The notes beneath the pieces are model-generated. The model searched no databases and was not told the DNA's origin. It saw only the letters and a list, made by a program, of their open reading frames with translations. 37,595 nucleotides of DNA, from the sequence record NC_019708.1; one strand, given 5' to 3'. This DNA comes from Enterobacteria phage mEp235. Below are positions 8,278 through 35,455 of this stretch, piece by piece. Both the position numbers and the translations under genes were made by a program. Every line of letters begins with the position of its first letter. The first letter of the stretch is position 1.

Positions 8278-8763
8278 ATGAAATTAACACTTGATGCACT
8301 CAAGGAGTCCGGCGCGTTTACCGGTCGCCCGGTTGAGAAAGAAATCACCTGGACGCAAGGCGATAAAAAAATCACCGCGACCGTGTATGTTCGCCCGATG
8401 GGTTATCACACAGCAACGTCCGATGTGCTGGCTTTTGGTGGTAAGGTCGATGGTGTGGCAGGGCGTATCGCCGCATCCATCTGCGATGAACATGGTAAAC
8501 CCATCTTCACCCCGGCTGACATTACTGGTGAGGCAGATCCTGAACGTGGTGCACTGGATGGCGGCCTGACGGTAGCACTGCTTCTGGCCATTCAGGAAGT
8601 TAACGATCTGGGAAAGACTTCGAGCTCAGCGCCGAAGACGAATTCTGGTGCGAGCTCGTCCTCAACGGAATCGGAGGCAGAACAATCGCCGAAGCGCGGG
8701 AAGTCCTCTCATTCAAAGAGTCCCAACTCTGGGCAAAGTACCGGGAACGATACGGGAGTCTGA
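8278..8763 (+). CDS. tail assembly chaperone (lambda G-like)
   Basis: 161-aa ORF directly before tape measure, contains slippery heptamer. Confidence 0.75.
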   Translation: MKLTLDALKESGAFTGRPVEKEITWTQGDKKITATVYVRPMGYHTATSDVLAFGGKVDGVAGRIAASICDEHGKPIFTPADITGEADPERGALDGGLTVALLLAIQEVNDLGKTSSSAPKTNSGASSSSTESEAEQSPKRGKSSHSKSPNSGQSTGNDTGV

Positions 8764-8939
8764 ACCCTATGTTGCGGGTTGAGTGGGGTGCCGGGCTGGT
8801 GAGCAGCATGATAGCCAACGTTAACAGAGACCCCAAGCGCCCACCATTCAACCCGACCGATTTCACACTTCACTTTACCAAAGTCAAAGCTGCTGATGGA
8901 CCAATCTCGTTAGAGGAAGCCAGAGCCAGCTGGACATAA
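8278..8939 (+). CDS. tail assembly chaperone frameshift product (G-T-like fusion, -1 shift at 8610-8616)
   Basis: -1 frame is open from 8604 to TAA 8937-8939 and reads as plausible protein; slip site G GGA AAG is identical to the lambda G/GT site. Confidence 0.7.
8610..8616 (+). promoter_or_regulatory. programmed -1 ribosomal frameshift slippery heptamer GGGAAAG
   Basis: in-frame as G.GGA.AAG in the chaperone ORF. Confidence 0.7.
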
Positions 8940-8958
8940 TGCCGCCAACGGAGAGTTT

Positions 8959-11379
8959 ATGGCTTCCAAATCACTGGGCACGCTGACGATCGACCTGATT
9001 GCCAAAGTGGGCGGTTTTGTCTCAGGCCTCTCGCAGGCTGAGCGAGCTTCACAAAAATGGCGTAAGCAGGTAAAGGAGGATGCCGCTGCCGCTGCAGCTG
9101 CCATGACCGGATTCGCAACAGCAGTCGGGGCTGCAGCCATCGGAGCCGGAGTGGCGGGGTATAACCTGCTCAAAACCACTTCACGTCAGATTACCGAATC
9201 AGACCGCTGGGCAAAGTCACTTAACATGTCCACGCAGTCCCTGTTAGCCTGGCAATATGCTGCAGAAAAAGCAGGTGTTTCCGGCGATCAGATGGCCGAT
9301 ATCTTTAAAGATGTCGGAGACAAAATCGGTGATGCCGTTCTTAATAAATCTGGTGAGGCGGTCGGTGCGCTGGACGCTCTGGGTTTGTCGGCTAAGAAAC
9401 TGGCCGGAGAATCTCCCGACAAGCAACTCCTGGCTATCAGCGACGCACTGGAGAAAGTTAAGTCCAACGCCGAGAAGACTACCATCCTGGAGAGTCTGGG
9501 TAATGACCTGTCAAAGATGCTGCCGCTCCTGGACAATGGCAGTGAAAAGCTGCGTCAGTATATGGATGCCGCGAAGAAGTTTGGTGTGGCGCCCGATGAC
9601 GCAGATATTGAAAAGCTGGTCAGAGTCAACGCCCTGTTTGAGGATATGGAGACGCAGGTCAACGGCGTCAAAATTGAACTTGCTGCAGGGCTCGCCAGCG
9701 TAGATTTGAGTGGGCTCCAGAAGTCTATTGGAGATATGGGGGATGTATTTAAAGACCCGGATGTTATTCAGGGTCTGACTGATCTGGTTGGTGGGGTAGT
9801 GGACCTTGCCACCTGGCTGGTAAGGGTAGGGGCCGAGGCCGGAAAGCTGATAGACCAGTACAAAGGTGGGAGTTCGGTCGGCCTGAATGCCTCCATTCCA
9901 GAAATTGAACGGCGCATCAAGAACCTGAATGCAGATCTCGATGATAAAGGCATACTGGCGAGTTTCAACAGAATAGGTATGGACGTATCCGGTAAGGAGG
10001 CCGAAAGGGCTGAGCTCCAGAGGCGACTGGCCTTTTTGAGAAACTCCCAATCTACTCTACCGAAAATAAAACTGCCCGAGCCAGTCAAAACAAACTATAC
10101 CCTTGGCGCCGGGGAAACAAACGGTAAGCCGCAAAAAAATACCTCTGGTCAGAAACTGGATTCAGCGTTTAAAAGCGCTGAGCGCAGTTACATGCGTCAG
10201 ATTGAGCTGATCGATACCACCGGCAAAAAAACTGCTGTGGTGACCGAGCAGCAAAAACTGCAGTTCGATATAGCTGACGGCAAGTTGCAGGGGCTTAACG
10301 AAACCCAGAAGAAACGACTTGCGTCTCTGGCTCAGGAAGTTGATCGCCTTAATGCCGTCAAAAAAGCTAATGAAGAAAACGCGAAGGTAGCGGCGTTCGT
10401 GGCAAATCTGCAGGAGCAGAACGAGAATGCACGTGCAGATTTGGGCGTGGATATTCAGGGGGCCGGACTCGGTGACAAGCAGCGTGAAAGGCTGAGGGAA
10501 AGGCTGAGTATAGAGCGCAGTTATCTCGATCAGCAGCGCGATCTGCAAAAGCAGTATCAGTCAGGAGATATCAGCCAGACAGTTTATGACCGCGAAACCC
10601 AGGCATTAAAGGATGCACAAGCTGAGAGGCTGGGCATCCAGGAGGATTATTACAGTCAAATTGATGCGCTGCAATCTGACTGGGTGACTGGCGCCAGAGA
10701 CGGTCTCGCTGACTGGGTAGATGATTCAACTAACTATGCGACGCTGGCGGCGGACGCTATGAAAAGCGCGCTTTCCGGTATCAGCAGCAATATCGTCGAC
10801 ATGCTCAACGGCAATAAAGCGAGCTGGAAAGACTGGGGTGTCAGTGTTCTGAAAATCATCGAACAGGTGATGGTTAACATGATGATCGCCAATGCAGCCA
10901 GCTCGATAGGCTCATTGTTCGGTGGTGCCGCATCGTCTTCCGCCAGCAGCGGTACTGCGATTCAGTCCTACGGGGCGAGCCTGCAATTCAACGCCAAAGG
11001 CGGCGTTTACTCTTCTGCCGATCTCAGTCAGTACAGTAACTCTGTCGTCAGCTCTCCAACACTGTTTGCCTTTGCCAAAGGGGCCGGATTGATGGGGGAG
11101 GCTGGGCCGGAGGCTATTATGCCACTGACCCGCGCCGCTGACGGATCGCTGGGCGTGCGTGCTATGGGAATCTCAGGCTTAACACCGGGTGGTAGTAGTG
11201 CTCCTCAGGTCAGTATTCAGATTGATGGCAATGGGAATACCCAGACTCAGGCTAGCGGTGGATATGAGCAATTCGGGCGGGAGGTAGGTAGTTTTGTTGA
11301 TCGGCGATACCGCGAGTTGATAGGCCGTGACCTTTCACCCGGTGGCGCGGTCTGGAATCTGGCAAAAGGAGGGCGGTGA
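8959..11379 (+). CDS. tail tape measure protein
   Basis: 806-aa ORF, long helical repeats, Ala/Gly-rich N-terminal TM-like segment, position after chaperone. Confidence 0.9.
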   Translation: MASKSLGTLTIDLIAKVGGFVSGLSQAERASQKWRKQVKEDAAAAAAAMTGFATAVGAAAIGAGVAGYNLLKTTSRQITESDRWAKSLNMSTQSLLAWQYAAEKAGVSGDQMADIFKDVGDKIGDAVLNKSGEAVGALDALGLSAKKLAGESPDKQLLAISDALEKVKSNAEKTTILESLGNDLSKMLPLLDNGSEKLRQYMDAAKKFGVAPDDADIEKLVRVNALFEDMETQVNGVKIELAAGLASVDLSGLQKSIGDMGDVFKDPDVIQGLTDLVGGVVDLATWLVRVGAEAGKLIDQYKGGSSVGLNASIPEIERRIKNLNADLDDKGILASFNRIGMDVSGKEAERAELQRRLAFLRNSQSTLPKIKLPEPVKTNYTLGAGETNGKPQKNTSGQKLDSAFKSAERSYMRQIELIDTTGKKTAVVTEQQKLQFDIADGKLQGLNETQKKRLASLAQEVDRLNAVKKANEENAKVAAFVANLQEQNENARADLGVDIQGAGLGDKQRERLRERLSIERSYLDQQRDLQKQYQSGDISQTVYDRETQALKDAQAERLGIQEDYYSQIDALQSDWVTGARDGLADWVDDSTNYATLAADAMKSALSGISSNIVDMLNGNKASWKDWGVSVLKIIEQVMVNMMIANAASSIGSLFGGAASSSASSGTAIQSYGASLQFNAKGGVYSSADLSQYSNSVVSSPTLFAFAKGAGLMGEAGPEAIMPLTRAADGSLGVRAMGISGLTPGGSSAPQVSIQIDGNGNTQTQASGGYEQFGREVGSFVDRRYRELIGRDLSPGGAVWNLAKGGR

Positions 11380-11717: not shown

Positions 11718-12469
11718 GTCTTAACGCAGATTTTCAGAAGCTCGAACCTGGCGATGTGGTCAGGCTTTTCGAAGTGGATGGCACGGCATTTGGTACAGGT
11801 GATGTGCTGCGATTTCACAGCTACAGTCTTGCGCACTCTGAAGCCGAAATTATCGCTGCTGGCGGTGATGAAAATAAACTGCCAGCAAAATCTATCTGGT
11901 GGCAGGGTGAGGAGTATAAAGCGTGGCCATGCCAGATTGAGGGGATCGAAGCTTCAACCTCGGGAAGTAGTGCCCAGCCAAAACTTTCGGTTGCTAACCT
12001 CGACAGTTCGATCACCGCGCTTTGCCTGGCTTACGACGATATGCTGCAGGCGAAGGTGACGATACATGACACCCTTGGTAAGTATCTCGATGCGAGAAAC
12101 TTCACCGGAGGCAATCCGACAGCCGATCCGACCCAGGAGAAGCTGAAGGTTTTCTACATCGATGCAAAGAGCAGTGAAACCAATGAAGTTGTTGAGTTCA
12201 CACTATCCAGCCCTATGGATCTGCAGGGGCTGATGATACCTACCCGCCAGCTTCATTCTCTGTGCACATGGTGCATCCGGAACAAGTACCGAACCGGCGA
12301 CGGCTGCGACTATGCCGGTACGCGCTATTTCGACAAAAACAACAACCAGGTAAGCGATCCGTCACTGGATGAATGCAACGGAACGCTGACGGCCTGCAAA
12401 CTTCGGTTCGGTGAAAACAACGAACTCTCGTTTGGTGGGTTCCCGGGTACGTCGCTGATCAGGAGTTGA
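11714..12469 (+). CDS. minor tail protein L-like
   Basis: 251 aa, overlaps M stop; C-terminal Cys cluster as in lambda L. Confidence 0.8.
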   Translation: MSLNADFQKLEPGDVVRLFEVDGTAFGTGDVLRFHSYSLAHSEAEIIAAGGDENKLPAKSIWWQGEEYKAWPCQIEGIEASTSGSSAQPKLSVANLDSSITALCLAYDDMLQAKVTIHDTLGKYLDARNFTGGNPTADPTQEKLKVFYIDAKSSETNEVVEFTLSSPMDLQGLMIPTRQLHSLCTWCIRNKYRTGDGCDYAGTRYFDKNNNQVSDPSLDECNGTLTACKLRFGENNELSFGGFPGTSLIRS

Positions 12470-12470
12470 T

Positions 12471-13181
12471 ATGCGTCAGAAAACCATCGATGCGATTATG
12501 GCGCATGCTGCAGCTGAATATCCTCGTGAGTGTTGCGGCGTGGTGGCGCAAAAGAGCCGGGTAGAGAAATATTTTCCATGTAGTAACCTCGCTACCGAGC
12601 CGACAGAACATTTTCACCTGTCGCCAGAAGACTATGCAGCTGCTGAGGACTGGGGTACGGTGATCGCCATCGTTCACAGTCACCCTGACGCCACTACGCA
12701 GCCGAGCGAACTGGATAAAGCGCAATGCGACGCAACGCTTTTACCCTGGCATATTGTGAGCTGGCCGGAGGGGGATTTACGCACCATCCAGCCGCGCGGA
12801 GAACTGCCACTGCTGGAGCGTCCGTTTGTGCTTGGACACTTCGACTGCTGGGGGCTGGTAATGAGCTATTTCCGGCAGACCCACGGTATCGAGCTCCACG
12901 ATTACCGGGTTGATTATCCCTGGTGGGAAAACGACTATCCGGACAACTTCTATCAGGATTGCTGGTATGAGTGCGGATTCCGGGAATTCGACGGGCCACC
13001 GAAACCCGGCGATATGGTGATCATGCAGGTCCAGGCTGATAAGTGGAACCACGCTGGAATTCTGCTGGAGGGCAATATGCTGCTGCACCACCTGTACGGA
13101 CATCTGAGCCAACGCGTGCCGTATGGTGGCTACTGGCAGGAAAGGACGATGAAGATTCTTAGACATCAGAATTTTATTTAA
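12471..13181 (+). CDS. tail assembly protein K-like (MPN/JAMM plus NlpC/P60 domains)
   Basis: 236 aa; N-terminal HSHP motif and C-terminal Cys/His region typical of lambda K. Confidence 0.8.
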   Translation: MRQKTIDAIMAHAAAEYPRECCGVVAQKSRVEKYFPCSNLATEPTEHFHLSPEDYAAAEDWGTVIAIVHSHPDATTQPSELDKAQCDATLLPWHIVSWPEGDLRTIQPRGELPLLERPFVLGHFDCWGLVMSYFRQTHGIELHDYRVDYPWWENDYPDNFYQDCWYECGFREFDGPPKPGDMVIMQVQADKWNHAGILLEGNMLLHHLYGHLSQRVPYGGYWQERTMKILRHQNFI

Positions 13182-27971: not shown

Positions 27972-28268
27972 ATGGCACAAGCAAGCTACAGCAAGCCAAC
28001 ACAGCGAGAAATTGATCGCGCTGAAACTGATTTACTCATCAACCTGTCAACGCTTACCCAGCGCGGTCTGGCAAAGATGATTGGCTGTCATGAATCGAAG
28101 ATAAGCAGAACGGACTGGAGATTTATTGCTTCGGTCTTGTGTGCTTTCGGAATGGCATCAGACATCAGTCCGATTAGCAGGGCTTTTAAGTATGCGCTTG
28201 ATGAAATCACAAAGAAAAAATCCCCGGCCGCCACCGAGGATTTTAAGCAAATTGATATGCAATTCTGA
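27972..28268 (+). CDS. cII: CII-like transcriptional activator
   Basis: 98 aa; C-terminus [18 protein letters not shown] resembles lambda CII C-terminus. Confidence 0.65.
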
Positions 28269-28300
28269 GGGAATTACTGGATCAATCCACAGGAGTCATT

Positions 28301-28447
28301 ATGACAAAACAACTCAGTCCTTACCAGGACAAAATTCACAAACACATACTACGTGATCGCTTCCTGTCCAGCTTCAAGCAGCCTGGTCGATTCCGGGCTG
28401 AGTTGGAAAAAGTGAAGCTGATGCAGAAGGAGAAAGGTCATGAGTAA
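28301..28447 (+). CDS. hypothetical 48-aa protein
   Basis: SD aggag 5 nt before ATG; stop overlaps start of the O-like gene; below the ORF-track size cutoff. Confidence 0.35.
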
Positions 28448-29339
28448 CATATCTAATCTAGCCGAAGCCAGAGAGGCCAGAAGGCTACAACAACCGCATC
28501 AAAGCAGCGGTAAGGGGTATGCCTTGCTGCACCGTAAAATTATGGATGTGCCGTTTTACAAGGACGCAGAAGCAGCGCATCTGTGGGTTCACTTAATCCT
28601 CAAAGCAAAGCATACGCCTGAGTATGTAATGACTGACGCAGGAGAAATTCTGGTAGGCAGAGGGAAGCTACTTGGCGGTAGAAACTCTCTGGCGTTTGAA
28701 ACAGGACTCAAACCAGATCGCGTTCAGTACCTGCTTAGAAAGTTCAAAAAACTCGGCATGATTGACTGGGTTTCACACGGTAAATTCTCAGTTTTCTCGG
28801 TAGAGAAATATGACGATTATCAGTCAAATTTTGTACCAGCAGATTACCAGCAAATTACCACCTCAAAGCCAGCAATACCAATGCCTGCAAGCAATACTGT
28901 ACCAGCAGATTACCAGCAAATTACCACAGATAAAGAATATAATAATATTATCTCTAATACTGACGTATTAGAGAGTACCGCAGCAGACAAAAAGTCTGAC
29001 AAGAAAAAACCTTCCGTTAGCTGTCAGGATGTTGTCGATGCTTACCACGAAATCCTTCCTGAAGCGCCAAGAATCCGCGCACTGAATGACAAGCGTAAAA
29101 ACCAGATCCGAACGTTCTGGCGCAAAGCCGGAGTGATAACCCGCCAGCTTGACGGGCATGGGTTCACGATGCAGGACTGGAGAAATTATTTGAGCTACGT
29201 AGGCGAAAATTGCCGATGGATGTTCGAAGAGCGCCCAAACCATCAACGCGGAACCGTCTGGCACAAAAAGGGATTTGATTTCCTGCTTAACGATAATACC
29301 TACCTGAAAGTTCGTGAGGGTGAACACGATGACCGATAA
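28440..29339 (+). CDS. replication initiator, O-like
   Basis: 299 aa; internal iteron repeats; followed by overlapping helicase gene. Confidence 0.75.
28833..28927. repeat. origin iterons inside the O-like gene
   Basis: two 29-bp direct repeats GTACCAGCAGATTACCAGCAAATTACCAC at 28833-28861 and 28899-28927, followed by an AT-rich tract. Confidence 0.65.
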
Positions 29340-30765
29340 TTTTTATGCGCCGCCCCATAGTATCGAGGCAGAGCAGGCGGTGATTGGTGGATTGCTTCTG
29401 GATGATGACAGCAGTGAGCGCGTCCAGAAAGTTCTGGCGATGCTGAAGCCTGATTCATTTTACAGCCGACCACACAAAATCCTTTTCGAAGAAATAACCA
29501 GAATGCACCGTGAGCAAAAGCCAGTAGATGGCCTGACGCTTTTCGATGAACTGGAGCGTAAATCGTTAACGGCGTCTGTTGGCGGTTTTGCTTATATCGC
29601 TGAGATCGCAAAGAACACGCCAAGCGCAGCAAACATCGTTGCTTATGCAATGCAGGTTCGTGAAACCGCAATGGAACGCTACGCCATCAACCGCATGACT
29701 GAAGCGACGGAATTGCTCTATTCCCGCAACGGAATGACTGCAACGCAGAAGTACGAAGCTATTCAGGCGATTTTCACGCAACTGACAGACCATGCAAAAA
29801 CCGGATCGCGTCGCGGCCTTCGCTCATTTGGTGAGGTCATGGAAGACTGGGTTAGCGACCTTGAGAAGCGATTTGACCCGTCAGGCGAACAACGAGGAAT
29901 GAGCACAGGGATCCCATCTCTGGACAGGATGCTGTCACCGAAAGGTCTGGTGAAAGGCTCTCTGTTCGTCATTGGCGCTCGCCCTAAGATGGGGAAAACG
30001 ACGCTATACAGCCAGATGGCAATCAACTGCGCAGTGCATGAGAAAAAGCCCGCTCTGATGTTCAGTCTTGAAATGCCAGGCGACCAGATACTGGAAAAGC
30101 TGGTAGGACAGAAGTCAGGTGTTAACCCGAATATTTTTTACCTTCCGGCGACAAATGACGCTGATGACGGCTATCAGGGTGATTACGATGGTGACTTCAA
30201 CAGGGCGATAGAAACAGCAAATCGCTTGAGTGAAATCGACATGCTTTACATCGACGACACGCCGGGATTATCTCTGGCTCAAATCGTCAGCGAAAGCCGT
30301 CGAATCAAGCGAGAAAAAGGATGTGTTGGCATGATTCTGGTCGATTACCTGACACTAATGACCGCTGAGAAGGCCGATCGCAACGACCTTGCTTACGGCA
30401 TGATCACCAAAGGACTGAAGAACCTTGCCAAAGAGCTTGATTGCGTTGTTGTGCTTCTGACGCAGCTTAACCGCGCACTGGAAAGCCGAACCAATAAACG
30501 CCCATTACCAAGTGACTCACGAGATACAGGGCAGATTGAACAGGATTGCGATTATTGGGTTGGGATCCATCGTGAAGGCGCTTTTGATGACAGTGTTCCA
30601 CCTGGTGAAACCGAACTAATCCTTCGTCTCAATCGTCATGGCAATACCGGCACGGTGTATTGCATTCAGGCAAATGGCGCTATTTATGACACAGACCAAC
30701 AGTCTGCTGAAATGCGCCGACGTGAACGCGAGGAACCGCAGTCCAAGAAGAAAGGAGGATTCTGA
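29329..30765 (+). CDS. DnaB-like replicative helicase
   Basis: N-terminal SIEAEQAVIGGLL motif, Walker A GARPKMGKT; start overlaps O stop. Confidence 0.9.
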   Translation: MTDNFYAPPHSIEAEQAVIGGLLLDDDSSERVQKVLAMLKPDSFYSRPHKILFEEITRMHREQKPVDGLTLFDELERKSLTASVGGFAYIAEIAKNTPSAANIVAYAMQVRETAMERYAINRMTEATELLYSRNGMTATQKYEAIQAIFTQLTDHAKTGSRRGLRSFGEVMEDWVSDLEKRFDPSGEQRGMSTGIPSLDRMLSPKGLVKGSLFVIGARPKMGKTTLYSQMAINCAVHEKKPALMFSLEMPGDQILEKLVGQKSGVNPNIFYLPATNDADDGYQGDYDGDFNRAIETANRLSEIDMLYIDDTPGLSLAQIVSESRRIKREKGCVGMILVDYLTLMTAEKADRNDLAYGMITKGLKNLAKELDCVVVLLTQLNRALESRTNKRPLPSDSRDTGQIEQDCDYWVGIHREGAFDDSVPPGETELILRLNRHGNTGTVYCIQANGAIYDTDQQSAEMRRREREEPQSKKKGGF

Positions 30766-30793
30766 TGAACATCTACGTCACTGAGCTAATAAC

Positions 30794-30825
30794 AGGCCTG
30801 CTGGTAATCGCAGGCCTTTTTATTT
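30794..30825 (+). terminator. intrinsic terminator after helicase gene
   Basis: AGGCCTGC-TGGTAATC-GCAGGCCT hairpin followed by TTTTTATTT. Confidence 0.65.
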
Positions 30826-30840
30826 GGGGGAGAGTAAATC

Positions 30841-31047
30841 GTGGTTGAGTTGATTTTCTCTGCATTGAGGCTTCTCGGTGCGTCGTGGATGGTGGTGACG
30901 TTCATTGTGGTGGCCAGCAGTTTTATCCGGTTGGTAGGTGAAGGTAAAGACATGGTGGGTGTGCTTTTCGGTAGCATTCTCATGTGGGTGATTATCGGTG
31001 TTGCGCCTGTCGCTGTAGCAAAAATGGCGTGGCGTTTTGTGAGTTGA
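30841..31047 (+). CDS. small two-helix membrane protein (GTG start)
   Basis: 68 aa, two hydrophobic segments; start codon uncertain. Confidence 0.35.
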   Translation: MVELIFSALRLLGASWMVVTFIVVASSFIRLVGEGKDMVGVLFGSILMWVIIGVAPVAVAKMAWRFVS

Positions 31048-31064
31048 ACTGAGGGTAAGTATCG

Positions 31065-31379
31065 ATGGACGAATCAAGAAAGCAGTTTGAGGAATACGTT
31101 GCCAAAAAATTGAGATTACCATTCGAGATGATAACCGAGGCAAGAAATGGTGATAGGTACTTCGCATTTTCAAGCATGGATATTCGTCACTCCTTAAATG
31201 AGTGGTGGACTTTATGGCAGGCATCGCGAGCAGATATTGAAATAACCGCGCCAAAGTTTATCGACAGCAGAGAAGCATTAGCCAAAGGGTTTACCGTTGA
31301 TTATTCCAATGGCTTCGGTGATGCAATGGATGCTTATGAGGAAAACATCCGCTCTGCTGGAGTCAAAGTGAAGGAGTAA
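31065..31379 (+). CDS. hypothetical protein (nin region)
   Basis: 104-aa ORF. Confidence 0.45.
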   Translation: MDESRKQFEEYVAKKLRLPFEMITEARNGDRYFAFSSMDIRHSLNEWWTLWQASRADIEITAPKFIDSREALAKGFTVDYSNGFGDAMDAYEENIRSAGVKVKE

Positions 31380-31381
31380 CG

Positions 31382-31792
31382 ATGAAGCAAACAATCTTCC
31401 TCCGAAGTAAGCAACAACAGCAAGCCGCAATCAACGCCATCCTCGAAACTCCTCTCGATAAAGACAAGCCAGTCACCATCCGCATTACTGACTACAAGCG
31501 CAACCTTGACCAGAACGCAAAATTTCACGCGATGCTGGCGGATATCGCTCGTCAGGTTCAATGGTGCGGCAAATGGTTAAAACCGGAACAATGGAAGGTT
31601 TTGTTGATCAGCGGTCATTCAGTGGCAACAAAGCAGGAAGCTGATGTTTTGCCCGGCCTTGAAGGCGAATACGTCAACATTAGGGAGAGCAGCGCACAGA
31701 TGAGCGTGAAGCGTATGGCAAGTCTGATCGAGTACACAACAGCATGGGCTATTGGTCAGGGTGTCAGATTTACCGACAGGAGGTACGAATGA
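31382..31792 (+). CDS. ninB: NinB-like recombination protein
   Basis: 136 aa; resembles lambda NinB (RSLDQN-like motif, similar length). Confidence 0.75.
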
Positions 31793-31971
31793 GACGACAG
31801 CGACGAAGTTTCACCGACATCATCTGCGAAAACTGCAAATACCTTCCAACGAAACGCTCCAGAAATAAACGCAAGCCAATCCCGAAAGAATCTGACGTAA
31901 AAACCTTCAACTACACGGCTCACCTGTGGGATATCCGGTGGCTTAGAGAACGTGCGAGGAAAACAAGGTGA
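31789..31971 (+). CDS. NinD-like small basic protein
   Basis: 60 aa, start overlaps ninB stop (ATGA). Confidence 0.45.
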
Positions 31972-32138
31972 TTGACCCAAATCGAAGTTACGAACAAGAA
32001 AGCGTCGAGCGGGCTTTAACGTGCGCTAACTGCGGTCAGAAGCTGCATGTGCTGGAAGTTCACGTGTGCTCCGATTGCTGCGCAGAACTGATGAGCGATC
32101 CGAATAGCTCAATGTACGAGGAAGAAGACGATGAGTGA
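31968..32138 (+). CDS. NinF-like Cys-rich small protein (GTG start)
   Basis: ~56 aa with [24 protein letters not shown] motif resembling lambda NinF. Confidence 0.55.
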
Positions 32139-32400
32139 TTTCTCTGAGCTTATTTCCTTCAAAAAAGACAGAGAAGAAATGCGGACTGAATCTGTCTATT
32201 ACGTTCAACACCGGAATAAACGCTCAGTGCTTGATCAGGAGTTGGTTATTACCGGAGACCTGGCATTCAGAACATATAAGGCCAGCATGGAAATGAAGGA
32301 TTTCCCTAAATGTGGTTCTGAAAGAGAAGCCGCGTTAAAGCTGGCTGAGTGGATGCAGAGAATGGCTGCTGCAATTGAGAATTACTGGAGTGAACCATAA
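32131..32400 (+). CDS. hypothetical protein (nin region)
   Basis: 89-aa ORF with overlapping start. Confidence 0.5.
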   Translation: MSDFSELISFKKDREEMRTESVYYVQHRNKRSVLDQELVITGDLAFRTYKASMEMKDFPKCGSEREAALKLAEWMQRMAAAIENYWSEP

Positions 32401-32690
32401 TGGCTAACCTACGCAAAGAAGCACGCGGCAGAGAATGCCAGGTACGTATTTACGGCGTATGCAATGGCAACCCTGAAACTACAGTTCTGGCACATTACCG
32501 GATGGCTGGAATTTGCGGAACGGGAATGAAGCCTGACGACCTGATCGGCGCATGGGCTTGTAGCGCGTGTCACGATGAAATCGACCGACGCACCCATAAT
32601 CTCGACAACAAAGACGCCAGACTTTACCACCTCGAAGGCGTGATCAGGACGCAGGCGATACTGCTGAAGGAGGGGAAGATTAAGCCATGA
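32400..32690 (+). CDS. hypothetical Cys-rich protein (nin region)
   Basis: 96 aa with several Cys/His pairs. Confidence 0.5.
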   Translation: MANLRKEARGRECQVRIYGVCNGNPETTVLAHYRMAGICGTGMKPDDLIGAWACSACHDEIDRRTHNLDNKDARLYHLEGVIRTQAILLKEGKIKP

Positions 32691-33049
32691 ACGAATATCA
32701 GTTTGTGCTTCCATATCCGCCGTCGCTGAATACTTACTGGCGAAGACGAGGAAGCCAATACTACATCAGCGATAAAGGCCAGAAATACCGAAAAGACGTT
32801 CAGCAAATCATTCGCCAACTCAAGTTAGACATTTTCACCAAATCACGACTCCGTATCAAAGTCATCGCAGACGTTCCAGACTCCCGCCGCCGCGACCTCG
32901 ACAACATCCTGAAAGGTTTACTCGACTCCCTTATCCACGCCGGATTTGCGGAAGACGACGAGCAATTCGATGACATTCGCGTAATTCGTGGTGTGAAAGT
33001 ACCAGGCGGAAGGCTTGGAATAAAAATCACCGAACTGGAGAACGCATGA
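32687..33049 (+). CDS. rusA: RusA Holliday junction resolvase
   Basis: 120 aa with RusA motifs (LPxPPS, DxDN, GGRL). Confidence 0.85.
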   Translation: MNEYQFVLPYPPSLNTYWRRRGSQYYISDKGQKYRKDVQQIIRQLKLDIFTKSRLRIKVIADVPDSRRRDLDNILKGLLDSLIHAGFAEDDEQFDDIRVIRGVKVPGGRLGIKITELENA

Positions 33050-33234
33050 ACGCCACAATTCAAACGATACCAGAGCTTCTTATCCAGACACGAGGCAATC
33101 AGACCGAAGTGGCAAGGATGCTTTCCTGCGCAAGAGGAACAGTGCTCAAGTACAACCGAGACAGTAAAGGCGAGCGTCACGTAATAGTTAACGGCGTCCT
33201 GATGGTCAAACAGGGAAAAAGGGGAAGGCCATGA
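33046..33234 (+). CDS. NinH-like small DNA-binding protein
   Basis: 62 aa; GNQTEVARxLxCxRGTVxKY resembles lambda NinH. Confidence 0.55.
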   Translation: MNATIQTIPELLIQTRGNQTEVARMLSCARGTVLKYNRDSKGERHVIVNGVLMVKQGKRGRP

Positions 33235-33854
33235 GACTCGAAAGCGTAGCTAAATTTCATTCGCCAAAAAGCCCGATGATGAGCGACTCACCACGGGCTA
33301 CGGCTTCCGACTCTCTTTCCGGTACTGATGTGATGGCTGCTATGGGGATGGCGCAATCACAAGCCGGATTCGGAATGGCTGCATTCTGCGGTAAGCATGA
33401 ACTCAGCCAGAACGACAAACAAAAGGCTATCAACTATCTGATGCAATTTGCACACAAGGTATCGGGGAAATACCGTGGTGTGGCAAAGCTTGAAGGAAAT
33501 ACTAAGGCAAAGGTACTGCAAGTGCTCGCAACATTCGCTTATGCGGATTATTGCCGTAGTGCCGCGACGCCGGGGGCAAGATGCAGAGATTGCCACGGTA
33601 CAGGCCGTGCGGTTGATATAGCCAAAACGGAGCAGTGGGGGAGAGTTGTTGAGAAAGAGTGCGGAAGATGCAAAGGTGTCGGCTATTCAAGAATGCCAGC
33701 AAGCGCCGCATATCGCGCTGTAACGATGCTAATCCCAAACCTTACTCAACCCACCTGGTCACGCACTGTTAAGCCGCTGTATGACGCTCTGGTGGTGCAA
33801 TGCCACAAAGAAGAGTCAATCGCAGACAACATTTTGAATGCGGTCACACGTTAG
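33231..33854 (+). CDS. Q: late antiterminator Q
   Basis: 207 aa, appears near-identical to lambda Q as recalled. Confidence 0.9.
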   Translation: MRLESVAKFHSPKSPMMSDSPRATASDSLSGTDVMAAMGMAQSQAGFGMAAFCGKHELSQNDKQKAINYLMQFAHKVSGKYRGVAKLEGNTKAKVLQVLATFAYADYCRSAATPGARCRDCHGTGRAVDIAKTEQWGRVVEKECGRCKGVGYSRMPASAAYRAVTMLIPNLTQPTWSRTVKPLYDALVVQCHKEESIADNILNAVTR

Positions 33855-33896
33855 CAGCATGATTTCCACGGATGGCAACATATTAACGGCATGATA

Positions 33897-33990
33897 TTGA
33901 CTTTTTGAATAAAGTTGGGTAAATTTGACTCAACGATGGATAAATGCACTCGTTAAATAAAGCCCTGAGTTAATAGCTCGGGGCTTTTTG
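33897..33990 (+). promoter_or_regulatory. late promoter pR' with qut region and tR' terminator (6S RNA unit)
   Basis: -35 TTGACT 33897-33902, -10 TAAATT 33920-33925, hairpin 33961-33985 followed by TTTTT, as in lambda. Confidence 0.7.
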
Positions 33991-34216
33991 CGTTTTAATC
34001 ACGACCTTTCTGAAAGCACATCAAACCAAATACCAGACAGACAAAAATAATCACCTTATCCGCTGTGGCTACGGTGCGGTGTGCTTTGCATAAAAGAAAA
34101 CCAGCACAATGGCTGGCTTCGTGAAAGCGGGTGGCAAGAGGTTGCGCTAACAACCTCCTGCCGTTTTGCCCTTATTCCTAATTAAATAGAGCAAATCCCC
34201 TTATTGGGGCTAAGAC

Positions 34217-34540: not shown

Positions 34541-35000
34541 TCAACGTAAGGCGTTCCTCGATATGCTGGCATGGTCAGAGGGAACTGATAACGGACGTCA
34601 GAAAACCAGAAATCATGGTTATGACGTCATTGTAGGCGGAGAGCTATTCACTGATTACTCCGATCACCCTCGCAAACTTGTCACGCTAAACCCCAAACTC
34701 AAATCAACAGCAGCCGGACGTTACCAGCTTCTTTCCCGTTGGTGGGACGCCTACCGTAAGCAGCTTGGCCTGAAAGACTTCTCTCCTAAAAGCCAGGATG
34801 CTGTTGCATTGCAGCAGATTAAGGAGCGTGGCGCTTTGCCGATGATTGATCGCGGTGATATCCGTCAGGCAATCGACCGTTGCAGCAATATCTGGGCTTC
34901 ACTGCCTGGCGCTGGTTATGGTCAGTTCGAGCATAAGGCTGACAGCCTGATTGCAAAATTCAAAGAAGCAGGCGGAACGGTCAGAGAGATTGAGGTATGA
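34524..35000 (+). CDS. R: endolysin R (lytic transglycosylase)
   Basis: 158 aa starting [24 protein letters not shown]. Confidence 0.9.
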
Positions 35001-35455
35001 GCAGAGTCACCGCGATTATCTCCGCTCTGGTTATCTGCATCATCGTCTGTCTGTCATGGGCTGTTAATCATTACCGTGATAACGCCATCGCCTACAAAGA
35101 ACAGCGAGATAAAAAAGTCAGTGAGCTGAAGCAGGCGACCGCCACCATCGCTGACATGCGGAAGCGTCAACGTGATGTAGCAGAACTCGACGCAAGATAC
35201 ACAAAGGAGCTTGCTGATGCTAACGCGACTATCGAAAGTCTCCGTGCTGATGTTTCTGCTGGTCGTAAGCGCCTGCAAGTCGCCGCCACCTGTGCAAAGT
35301 CAACGACCGGAGCCAGCAGCATGGGCGATGGAGAAAGCCCAGGACTTACAGCAGATGCTGAACTCAATTATTACCGTCTCCGAAGTGGAATCGACAGGAT
35401 AACCGCGCAGGTTAACTACCTGCAGGAATACATCAGGACGCAATGCCTGAAATAA
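34997..35455 (+). CDS. Rz: spanin inner-membrane subunit Rz
   Basis: 152 aa, N-terminal TM helix then coiled coil. Confidence 0.85.
35211..35402 (+). CDS. Rz1: spanin outer-membrane lipoprotein Rz1 (embedded in Rz, +1 frame)
   Basis: lipobox VVSAC and Pro-rich mature region; exact start codon (35211 or 35217) uncertain. Confidence 0.65.

Follow-up and report, generated by a model that had tools for sequence, protein, structure and literature searches.

The site that follows the helicase gene of phage mEp235 very probably marks the point at which the replication module of a lambdoid phage meets the nin region, and here the terminator tR2, the mini-gene ninA, and a 68-codon gene, here called orf68, lie nested in an arrangement that has been described before. 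Lambda tR2, NinA, and PHROG 1165, the protein family of orf68, are all already public in sequence records and catalogues. The window is the whole stretch of DNA that was analysed, 37,595 nucleotides of Enterobacteria phage mEp235 (NC_019708.1), and positions below refer to it unless another record is named. A 331-nt query around the site was 100% identical over its full length to PV340540.1 (Escherichia phage mEp235), for which the window coordinate is the PV340540.1 coordinate plus 20664, and the same query also matched 395 other lambdoid phage records. Genes of the early-right operon are arranged in the order cro, cII, an O-like initiator, a DnaB-type helicase, NinB, NinE, NinF, YbcO, RusA, NinH, and Q. 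The features with which this work is concerned are as follows.

29329 to 30765, plus strand: DnaB-like replicative helicase gene (Pfam DnaB_C and DnaB N-terminal domains; CDS 8665..10101 of PV340540.1).
30765 to 30848, plus strand: ninA, a 27-codon hydrophobic mini-ORF, MNIYVTELITGLLVIAGLFIWGRVNRG (PHROG 5907; annotated in HK630, HK620, and SPN9CC).
30786 to 30953, minus strand: ORF judged to be a shadow ORF (CDS 10122..10289 of PV340540.1).
30794 to 30817, plus strand: tR2 hairpin (terminator scan, fold, identity with lambda, annotation in HK620, stem pairing across variants, and low diversity).
30818 to 30825, plus strand: T-tract of tR2, TTTTATTT (sequence, terminator scan, and diversity).
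30826 to 30834, plus strand: Shine-Dalgarno region, GGGGGAGAG (sequence, alignment with lambda, and retention upstream of the ORF in all loci).
30841 to 31047, plus strand: orf68, encoding a 68-aa protein predicted to be a two-helix inner-membrane hairpin (PHROG 1165, conservation, dN/dS, mosaic borders, and AlphaFold).

The hairpin, AGGCCTGC-TGGTAATC-GCAGGCCT, has an 8-bp stem with six G-C pairs and an 8-nt loop, and the T-tract follows directly on its 3' side, on the strand of the pR operon. A sequence-only reading of this DNA had described an 8-bp GC-rich stem with a U-tract and had likened it to a tR2-type terminator; the stem and the tract are present as described, and the likeness proved to be one of identity, since from the hairpin through GGGGGAGAG the sequence is base-for-base that of lambda (NC_001416) over at least 41 nt, and the same hairpin sequence is labelled "terminator tR2" in HK620 and "terminator" in HK75. 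The same reading had put the terminator right after the helicase gene, which is correct in that it lies 3' of that gene, but it begins 28 nt past the stop codon, inside ninA. As a bare pattern, the hairpin is not rare: 10 terminator-like sites were detected in the 6 kb scanned versus 6.2 +/- 2.9 in shuffled sequences, and the z-score of the hairpin fold was -1.85. Its conservation is more telling. An identical 39-nt core was found in 75 of 83 related loci, and nucleotide diversity across the 83 loci was 0.007 for the hairpin and 0.003 for the T-tract versus 0.065 for the adjacent ORF, placing the hairpin about nine-fold below the ORF. Each stem substitution seen among the related loci retains its pair through a G-U wobble, and in a more divergent copy, from a Pantoea prophage, one pair of the stem has undergone a compensatory change, from C-G to G-C. 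Across eight variants, all 64 of 64 stem cells were paired, and 61 of 500 shuffles reached the observed score in this control, which has low power with so few variants. Taken together, the identity with lambda, the annotation in HK620 and HK75, and the conservation identify the hairpin by its sequence as lambda tR2, a known element. The T-tract is the expected place of transcript 3' ends, and tR2 would stop most pR transcripts that do not carry the N antiterminator modification. For lambda tR2, a maximal termination efficiency of ~0.9 was the value used in PMC4824070. Phages lambda and mEp235 have in common the hairpin, the T-tract, the Shine-Dalgarno element, the position at the start of the nin region, and the embedding in ninA, whereas the upstream gene is ren in lambda and encodes a DnaB-type helicase in mEp235, and the Shine-Dalgarno element serves ninB in lambda and orf68 in mEp235.

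The tR2 hairpin lies wholly within the frame of ninA, a mini-ORF that overlaps both neighbouring genes and that was overlooked in the first reading. Its ATG shares one base with the TGA stop codon of the helicase gene at 30763-30765 (TGATG, 30763-67), and its own TGA (30846-48) overlaps the GTG start codon of the next gene (GTGGTTGA). The frame matched PHROG 5907 over residues 1-26 of 27 with an E value of 4.4e-17, and the same ORF is found in lambda, between ren and ninB. The NinA peptides of lambda, P22, and HK620 are near-identical to the mEp235 copy, which differs by T2N and I5V and by the overlap of its stop codon with a GTG, compared with the ATGA overlap with ninB in lambda. ninA was intact in 82 of 87 loci, with eight starting with GTG rather than ATG. 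Five unrelated upstream genes each join ninA exactly at its start codon; in the HK022 type, the junction is instead at the foot of the hairpin, which makes the terminator, and not the NinA peptide, the indispensable core. It has been reported that the NinA start in lambda precedes tR2 by 30 bp and the NinA stop follows it by 16 bp, that lambda transcripts ended at tR2 are non-stop messages for the NinA frame, and that silencing of the NinA start changed termination efficiency by only about 10% (PMC4824070). NinA is credited there to Kroger and Hobom 1982 and to lambda ribosome profiling. In mEp235, ninA may keep the nin genes translationally interlinked across the terminator.

Downstream of tR2, the GGAG core of the Shine-Dalgarno region (30829-32) is located 8 nt before the GTG at 30841, which opens orf68. 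Judged from its pattern of conservation, orf68 is a real, protein-coding gene, and the family to which it belongs is conserved and already catalogued. The predicted protein matched PHROG 1165, a family of unknown function, over its full length (residues 1-68 of 68, E 1.6e-35). Among 84 DNA copies, 39 of them distinct, the frame was intact, the GTG was invariant, and there were zero indels. The 39 close variants had 18, 12, and 22 variable sites by codon position, and their dN/dS was 0.50 in the ORF frame versus 0.30 in a stop-ridden frame, with two antisense frames mostly open. More divergent copies were detected by tblastn, with 55-58% identity in HK620, H-19B, and mEp213 and 46% identity in Salmonella P22-like phages. 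Between mEp235 and diverged alleles there were 77-86 differences per 201 nt (~40% of nucleotides) and no indel; the differences were distributed 25/18/34 and 29/17/40 by codon position, and among the six frames, dN/dS was lowest in that of the ORF (0.24-0.33). Furthermore, the Salmonella allele has an ATG exactly where the E. coli alleles have the GTG, and the ninA stop codon overlaps the start codon there too. The sequence-only reading had proposed a 68-aa hydrophobic protein with a likely GTG start at this position, and the protein is there (30841-31047), with a GRAVY of 1.47 and two hydrophobic segments; that reading had also named a lack of conservation of the hydrophobic frame as evidence against it, and the frame is kept down to 29-38% identity.

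Two other interpretations of this stretch have to be weighed against a coding orf68. One is that the 207 nt are non-coding, a spacer or an RNA element in which the frame is open simply through a G/T-rich composition. The composition is indeed strongly skewed (GC +0.43, AT -0.37), two antisense frames are also largely open, and dN/dS among close relatives is uninformative. However, the ORF survives ~40% nucleotide divergence without an indel and with the lowest dN/dS of the six frames, its start alternates between GTG and ATG at a single position, homologues at 29-38% identity match it in length and have seven invariant residues, mosaic junctions directly abut its start and stop codons, and the whole window had zero Rfam matches. 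This interpretation is already largely refuted, and we consider it extremely unlikely. In 30800-31100, the skew is confined to orf68, and it can be attributed to the G/T-rich codons for Val, Gly, Phe, Leu, and Trp. The other interpretation is that the real gene is the minus-strand ORF at 30786-30953, the hypothetical CDS that PV340540.1 annotates in place of ninA and orf68, neither of which is annotated in that record. This frame is open in 38 of the 39 close variants, which may result from codon geometry, because the sense protein has no Tyr, His, or Gln codons. In contrast, it is interrupted by stop codons in the alleles of HK620 and SPN9CC, has lost its start codon in HK75 and HK022, has no family match, and is oriented antisense to the pR operon as a whole, crossing both the tR2 hairpin and ninA; the chance that it is the real gene is practically negligible. 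Annotations of the sense gene also differ. For instance, orf68 is annotated to start at Met17 in HK630, which would drop residues that align in distant homologues, and in HK620 (NC_002730.1) the gap between ninA and ninB, which is unannotated in RefSeq, holds an intact GTG-start 68-codon homologue with ~55% identity to orf68 (record ~12379-12585; ~1196-1402 of the extracted locus L092).

Many lambdoid phages of E. coli and Salmonella have a gene of the orf68 family. PHROG 1165 includes HK75_43, HK022_58, SPN9CC_0027, and orf70 of Stx2 phage 86, with a match over the full length, and mEp235 carries one allele of this family. The mEp235 protein is 82-99% identical to hundreds of prophage proteins of E. 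coli, Salmonella, and E. albertii, all described as "hypothetical". When 5.8 billion proteins were searched, 193 clusters were obtained, which came from E. coli, E. albertii, and Salmonella and were all named "hypothetical protein", and among the orf68 matches listed, 114 of 120 were exactly 68 aa long. A match to orf68 was present in 419 of 5426 complete E. coli genomes (~8%), and the gene is carried by many Stx2a-converting phages. When 1.84 billion cluster representatives were searched exhaustively with a profile, 17 matches were obtained, including full-length proteins of 63-66 aa with 29-38% identity; relatives at this level were found in prophages of Pantoea, Erwinia, Enterobacter, and Izhakiella. 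In the distant homologues, W16, M17, W49, G53, P56, K61, and W64 are invariant, and D37 is nearly so. A scan of 185,579 species genomes with a degenerate DNA motif gave nine hits, all of which were true members of the orf68 family; the genera represented are Escherichia, Enterobacter, Izhakiella (two), Erwinia, and Pantoea. Another two contigs, binned into a Cellvibrionaceae MAG (L099) and a Collinsella MAG (L102), carry an orf68 of the E. coli type, the former together with ninA and tR2, and these alleles are likely due to bin contamination. One 68-aa candidate for a distant homologue, P0131 (L091, 4001-4207), was rejected. Nearly all of its differences from the Salmonella allele (L>F, A>V, T>M, R>C, and P>L/F) are those that C-to-T conversion would produce, and it is probably an assembly of bisulfite-type reads and not a natural variant.

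The distant members are located in tightly packed arrays of small early genes on the same strand, with NinX, NinF, YbcO, O, and DnaC-like neighbours, and they usually overlap the upstream stop codon and lack a terminator. Upstream sequence was examined for six distant loci; one of these, in a Pantoea sp. 1.19 prophage, has the order O-like gene, helicase gene, two extra ORFs, ninA-like/tR2-like sequence, a 63-aa homologue, and ninB; its helicase is 74% identical to that of mEp235, and the 63-aa homologue is 36% identical to orf68. This gene order indicates that the order ninA/tR2-orf68-ninB is old. In the same locus (L100, 5304-5583), the ninA-like frame has 56 codons, overlaps the upstream gene by TAATG, and overlaps the orf68 homologue out of frame by ~80 nt.

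A comparison of the sequences flanking orf68 revealed breaks exactly at the gene borders in no fewer than five contexts on the upstream side and no fewer than four on the downstream side. Mosaic junctions fall directly after the orf68 stop codon in at least four contexts, one of which is a direct join to ninB. Lambda is without orf68, and there the Shine-Dalgarno unit is joined directly to ninB. Since the borders are flush with the start and stop codons and lambda joins the Shine-Dalgarno unit to ninB, orf68 behaves as a cassette, an optional one placed precisely where the tR2/Shine-Dalgarno unit would otherwise join the nin genes that follow. The absence of the gene from lambda, a stop codon in the H-19B copy, and the several truncated forms present in databases indicate that orf68 is dispensable, and its product may be an accessory protein. 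In the H-19B record (AF034975.3; locus L094, ~1195-1401), a TGA replaces the TGG codon of the invariant Trp16, and this copy is a pseudogene unless the TGA stems from an old sequencing error.

Mosaicism was also observed within genes. In orf68, it affects the last 63 nt (30985-31047): HK620 and H-19B have the C-terminal third in common with the mEp235 type, and the N-terminal two-thirds are ~45% identical. Among the matching E. coli genomes, 306 of 419 cover at least 80% of the query and about a quarter are not full-length; the weakest among the E. coli matches listed cover only nt 145-207 of the query, with 90-100% identity. The gene after orf68 (31065-31379) encodes a 104-aa protein of PHROG 343, and its first ~10 codons (MDESRKQFE) are common to at least three different continuations in other phages, indicating an intragenic mosaic junction.

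The orf68 protein has hydrophobic segments at residues ~11-33 and 38-60, which are separated by the short loop RLVGEGKD. Its charges are E3 and R10 near the N-terminus and K61 and R65 near the C-terminus, and the loop is net-neutral; by the positive-inside rule, this distribution favours a location of both termini in the cytoplasm, which is probably where they are. AlphaFold, with a diverse alignment, predicted helices at residues 2-33 and 38-67 with a mean pLDDT of 91, and the protein is thus confidently predicted to be a helical hairpin. The possibility that the first hydrophobic segment is a cleavable signal peptide, with the motif V23-V24-A25, was rejected, because the motif is not conserved in the homologues and the hydrophobic stretch would be too long. 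Searches for known relatives of orf68 returned zero matches in Pfam and NCBIfam, zero PADLOC families at E <= 1, and zero sequence matches in the PDB; a Foldseek comparison with viral and PDB structures returned generic helical hairpins only, the best with E values of 0.87 and 2.2, and nothing relevant on the function of a nin-region membrane protein was found in the literature.

As for its expression, the plus strand of the scanned region (28000-34000) showed no promoter-like site ahead of orf68 and no terminator-like site from orf68 to 33959; the next gene starts 17 nt after the orf68 stop codon. Since it has no promoter or terminator of its own, orf68 is not an autonomous moron and should be expressed only on N-antiterminated pR transcripts. 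The protein would therefore be made only in lytic growth, from pR transcripts that pass tR2 after N acts. Translation from the GTG at 30841 would depend on the GGAG element, on re-initiation by ribosomes that have terminated at the end of ninA, or on both; the ninA stop codon lies 5 nt downstream of the GTG and would thus allow termination-reinitiation. Further downstream, just 3' of Q, a promoter-like sequence (TTGACT-17-TAAATT, 33897-33925) is followed by a terminator with a 13-bp stem (33959-33987), and 33897-33996 resembles the late leader of lambdoid phages with its pR' and tR'.

With regard to function, our best guess, which is tentative and weakly held, is that orf68 may use its conserved Trp/Gly/Pro/Lys face to contact an inner-membrane protein of the host and not act by pore formation, with a helix-helix contact to a host membrane component in the delayed-early phase. 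An exclusion factor and a pore-forming toxin are both less likely than such a host-membrane partner. The sequence-only reading had noted that small membrane proteins at this place can be toxins or exclusion factors, a speculative suggestion for which none of the tools applied gave support. T4 Imm and HK97 gp15 are small early phage inner-membrane exclusion proteins, and by analogy orf68 could serve in superinfection exclusion or as an anti-phage factor, by blocking the entry of DNA or aborting infection by other phages: it is a small predicted two-helix inner-membrane protein encoded in an accessory region, by an optional cassette that is absent from lambda. It resembles the two proteins in small size, helical membrane-anchored architecture, and dispensable accessory status, but PADLOC, PDB, and Foldseek comparisons showed no sequence, profile, or fold similarity of orf68 to them, and PADLOC gave no match at all. 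To our knowledge, there is no exclusion phenotype known for orf68. In addition, without a promoter and terminator of its own, the gene should be silent in a repressed prophage, so that expression from a repressed prophage, as needed for exclusion of the lysogen type, is unlikely. The family is also found behind at least five different upstream modules and together with unrelated virion and injection modules, in the siphoviruses HK022, HK75, and mEp235, the P22-like podoviruses HK620 and SPN9CC, and Stx2 phages, and this occurrence across unrelated virion types argues against exclusion tuned to one entry route. On the whole, we consider exclusion unlikely.

The other alternative is that orf68 is a membrane-damaging toxin or a holin-like pore former that depolarises the host membrane. 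With two predicted transmembrane helices in 68 aa, it is near the size of class II holins and pinholins, and the second helix has a GxxxG-like spacing (G40-x3-G44). Class II holins and pinholins have a charged hydrophilic C-terminal tail and a dual-start motif; orf68 has a C-terminal tail of only 8 aa with two positive charges (KMAWRFVS), no dual-start motif, and no second start near the N-terminus, and zero holin matches were obtained in Pfam or PHROG. Moreover, the location does not fit, because such holins are encoded in the lysis cassette beside the endolysin, under late Q-dependent control, whereas orf68 is in the delayed-early nin region, upstream of Q and far from the lysis cassette, and the phage already has a holin of the lambda S type (PF05106, 34217-34540) and Rz (34997-35455). 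A pore formed so early would probably kill the host before progeny were made. A pore-forming role is accordingly very unlikely, and a host inner-membrane partner is the reading that we prefer.

The value of the site for discovery is small, as tR2 and ninA are classic lambda features and the orf68 protein belongs to a catalogued family. Its practical value lies in annotation, since the CDS annotated for mEp235 is on the wrong strand and the homologous gene is missing from the HK620 RefSeq annotation. Because it is small, dispensable, and directly behind tR2, orf68 is also an easy target for knockout and expression. Beyond this, two wider readings, which we regard as distinctly improbable, have conservation and position as the full extent of their support. 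The orf68 family might be a delayed-early effector with a specific host inner-membrane target, which could be, for example, a component of DNA entry, transport, or quality control. In addition, ribosome traffic on ninA might tune how much transcription continues beyond tR2 to reach orf68, the nin genes, and Q.
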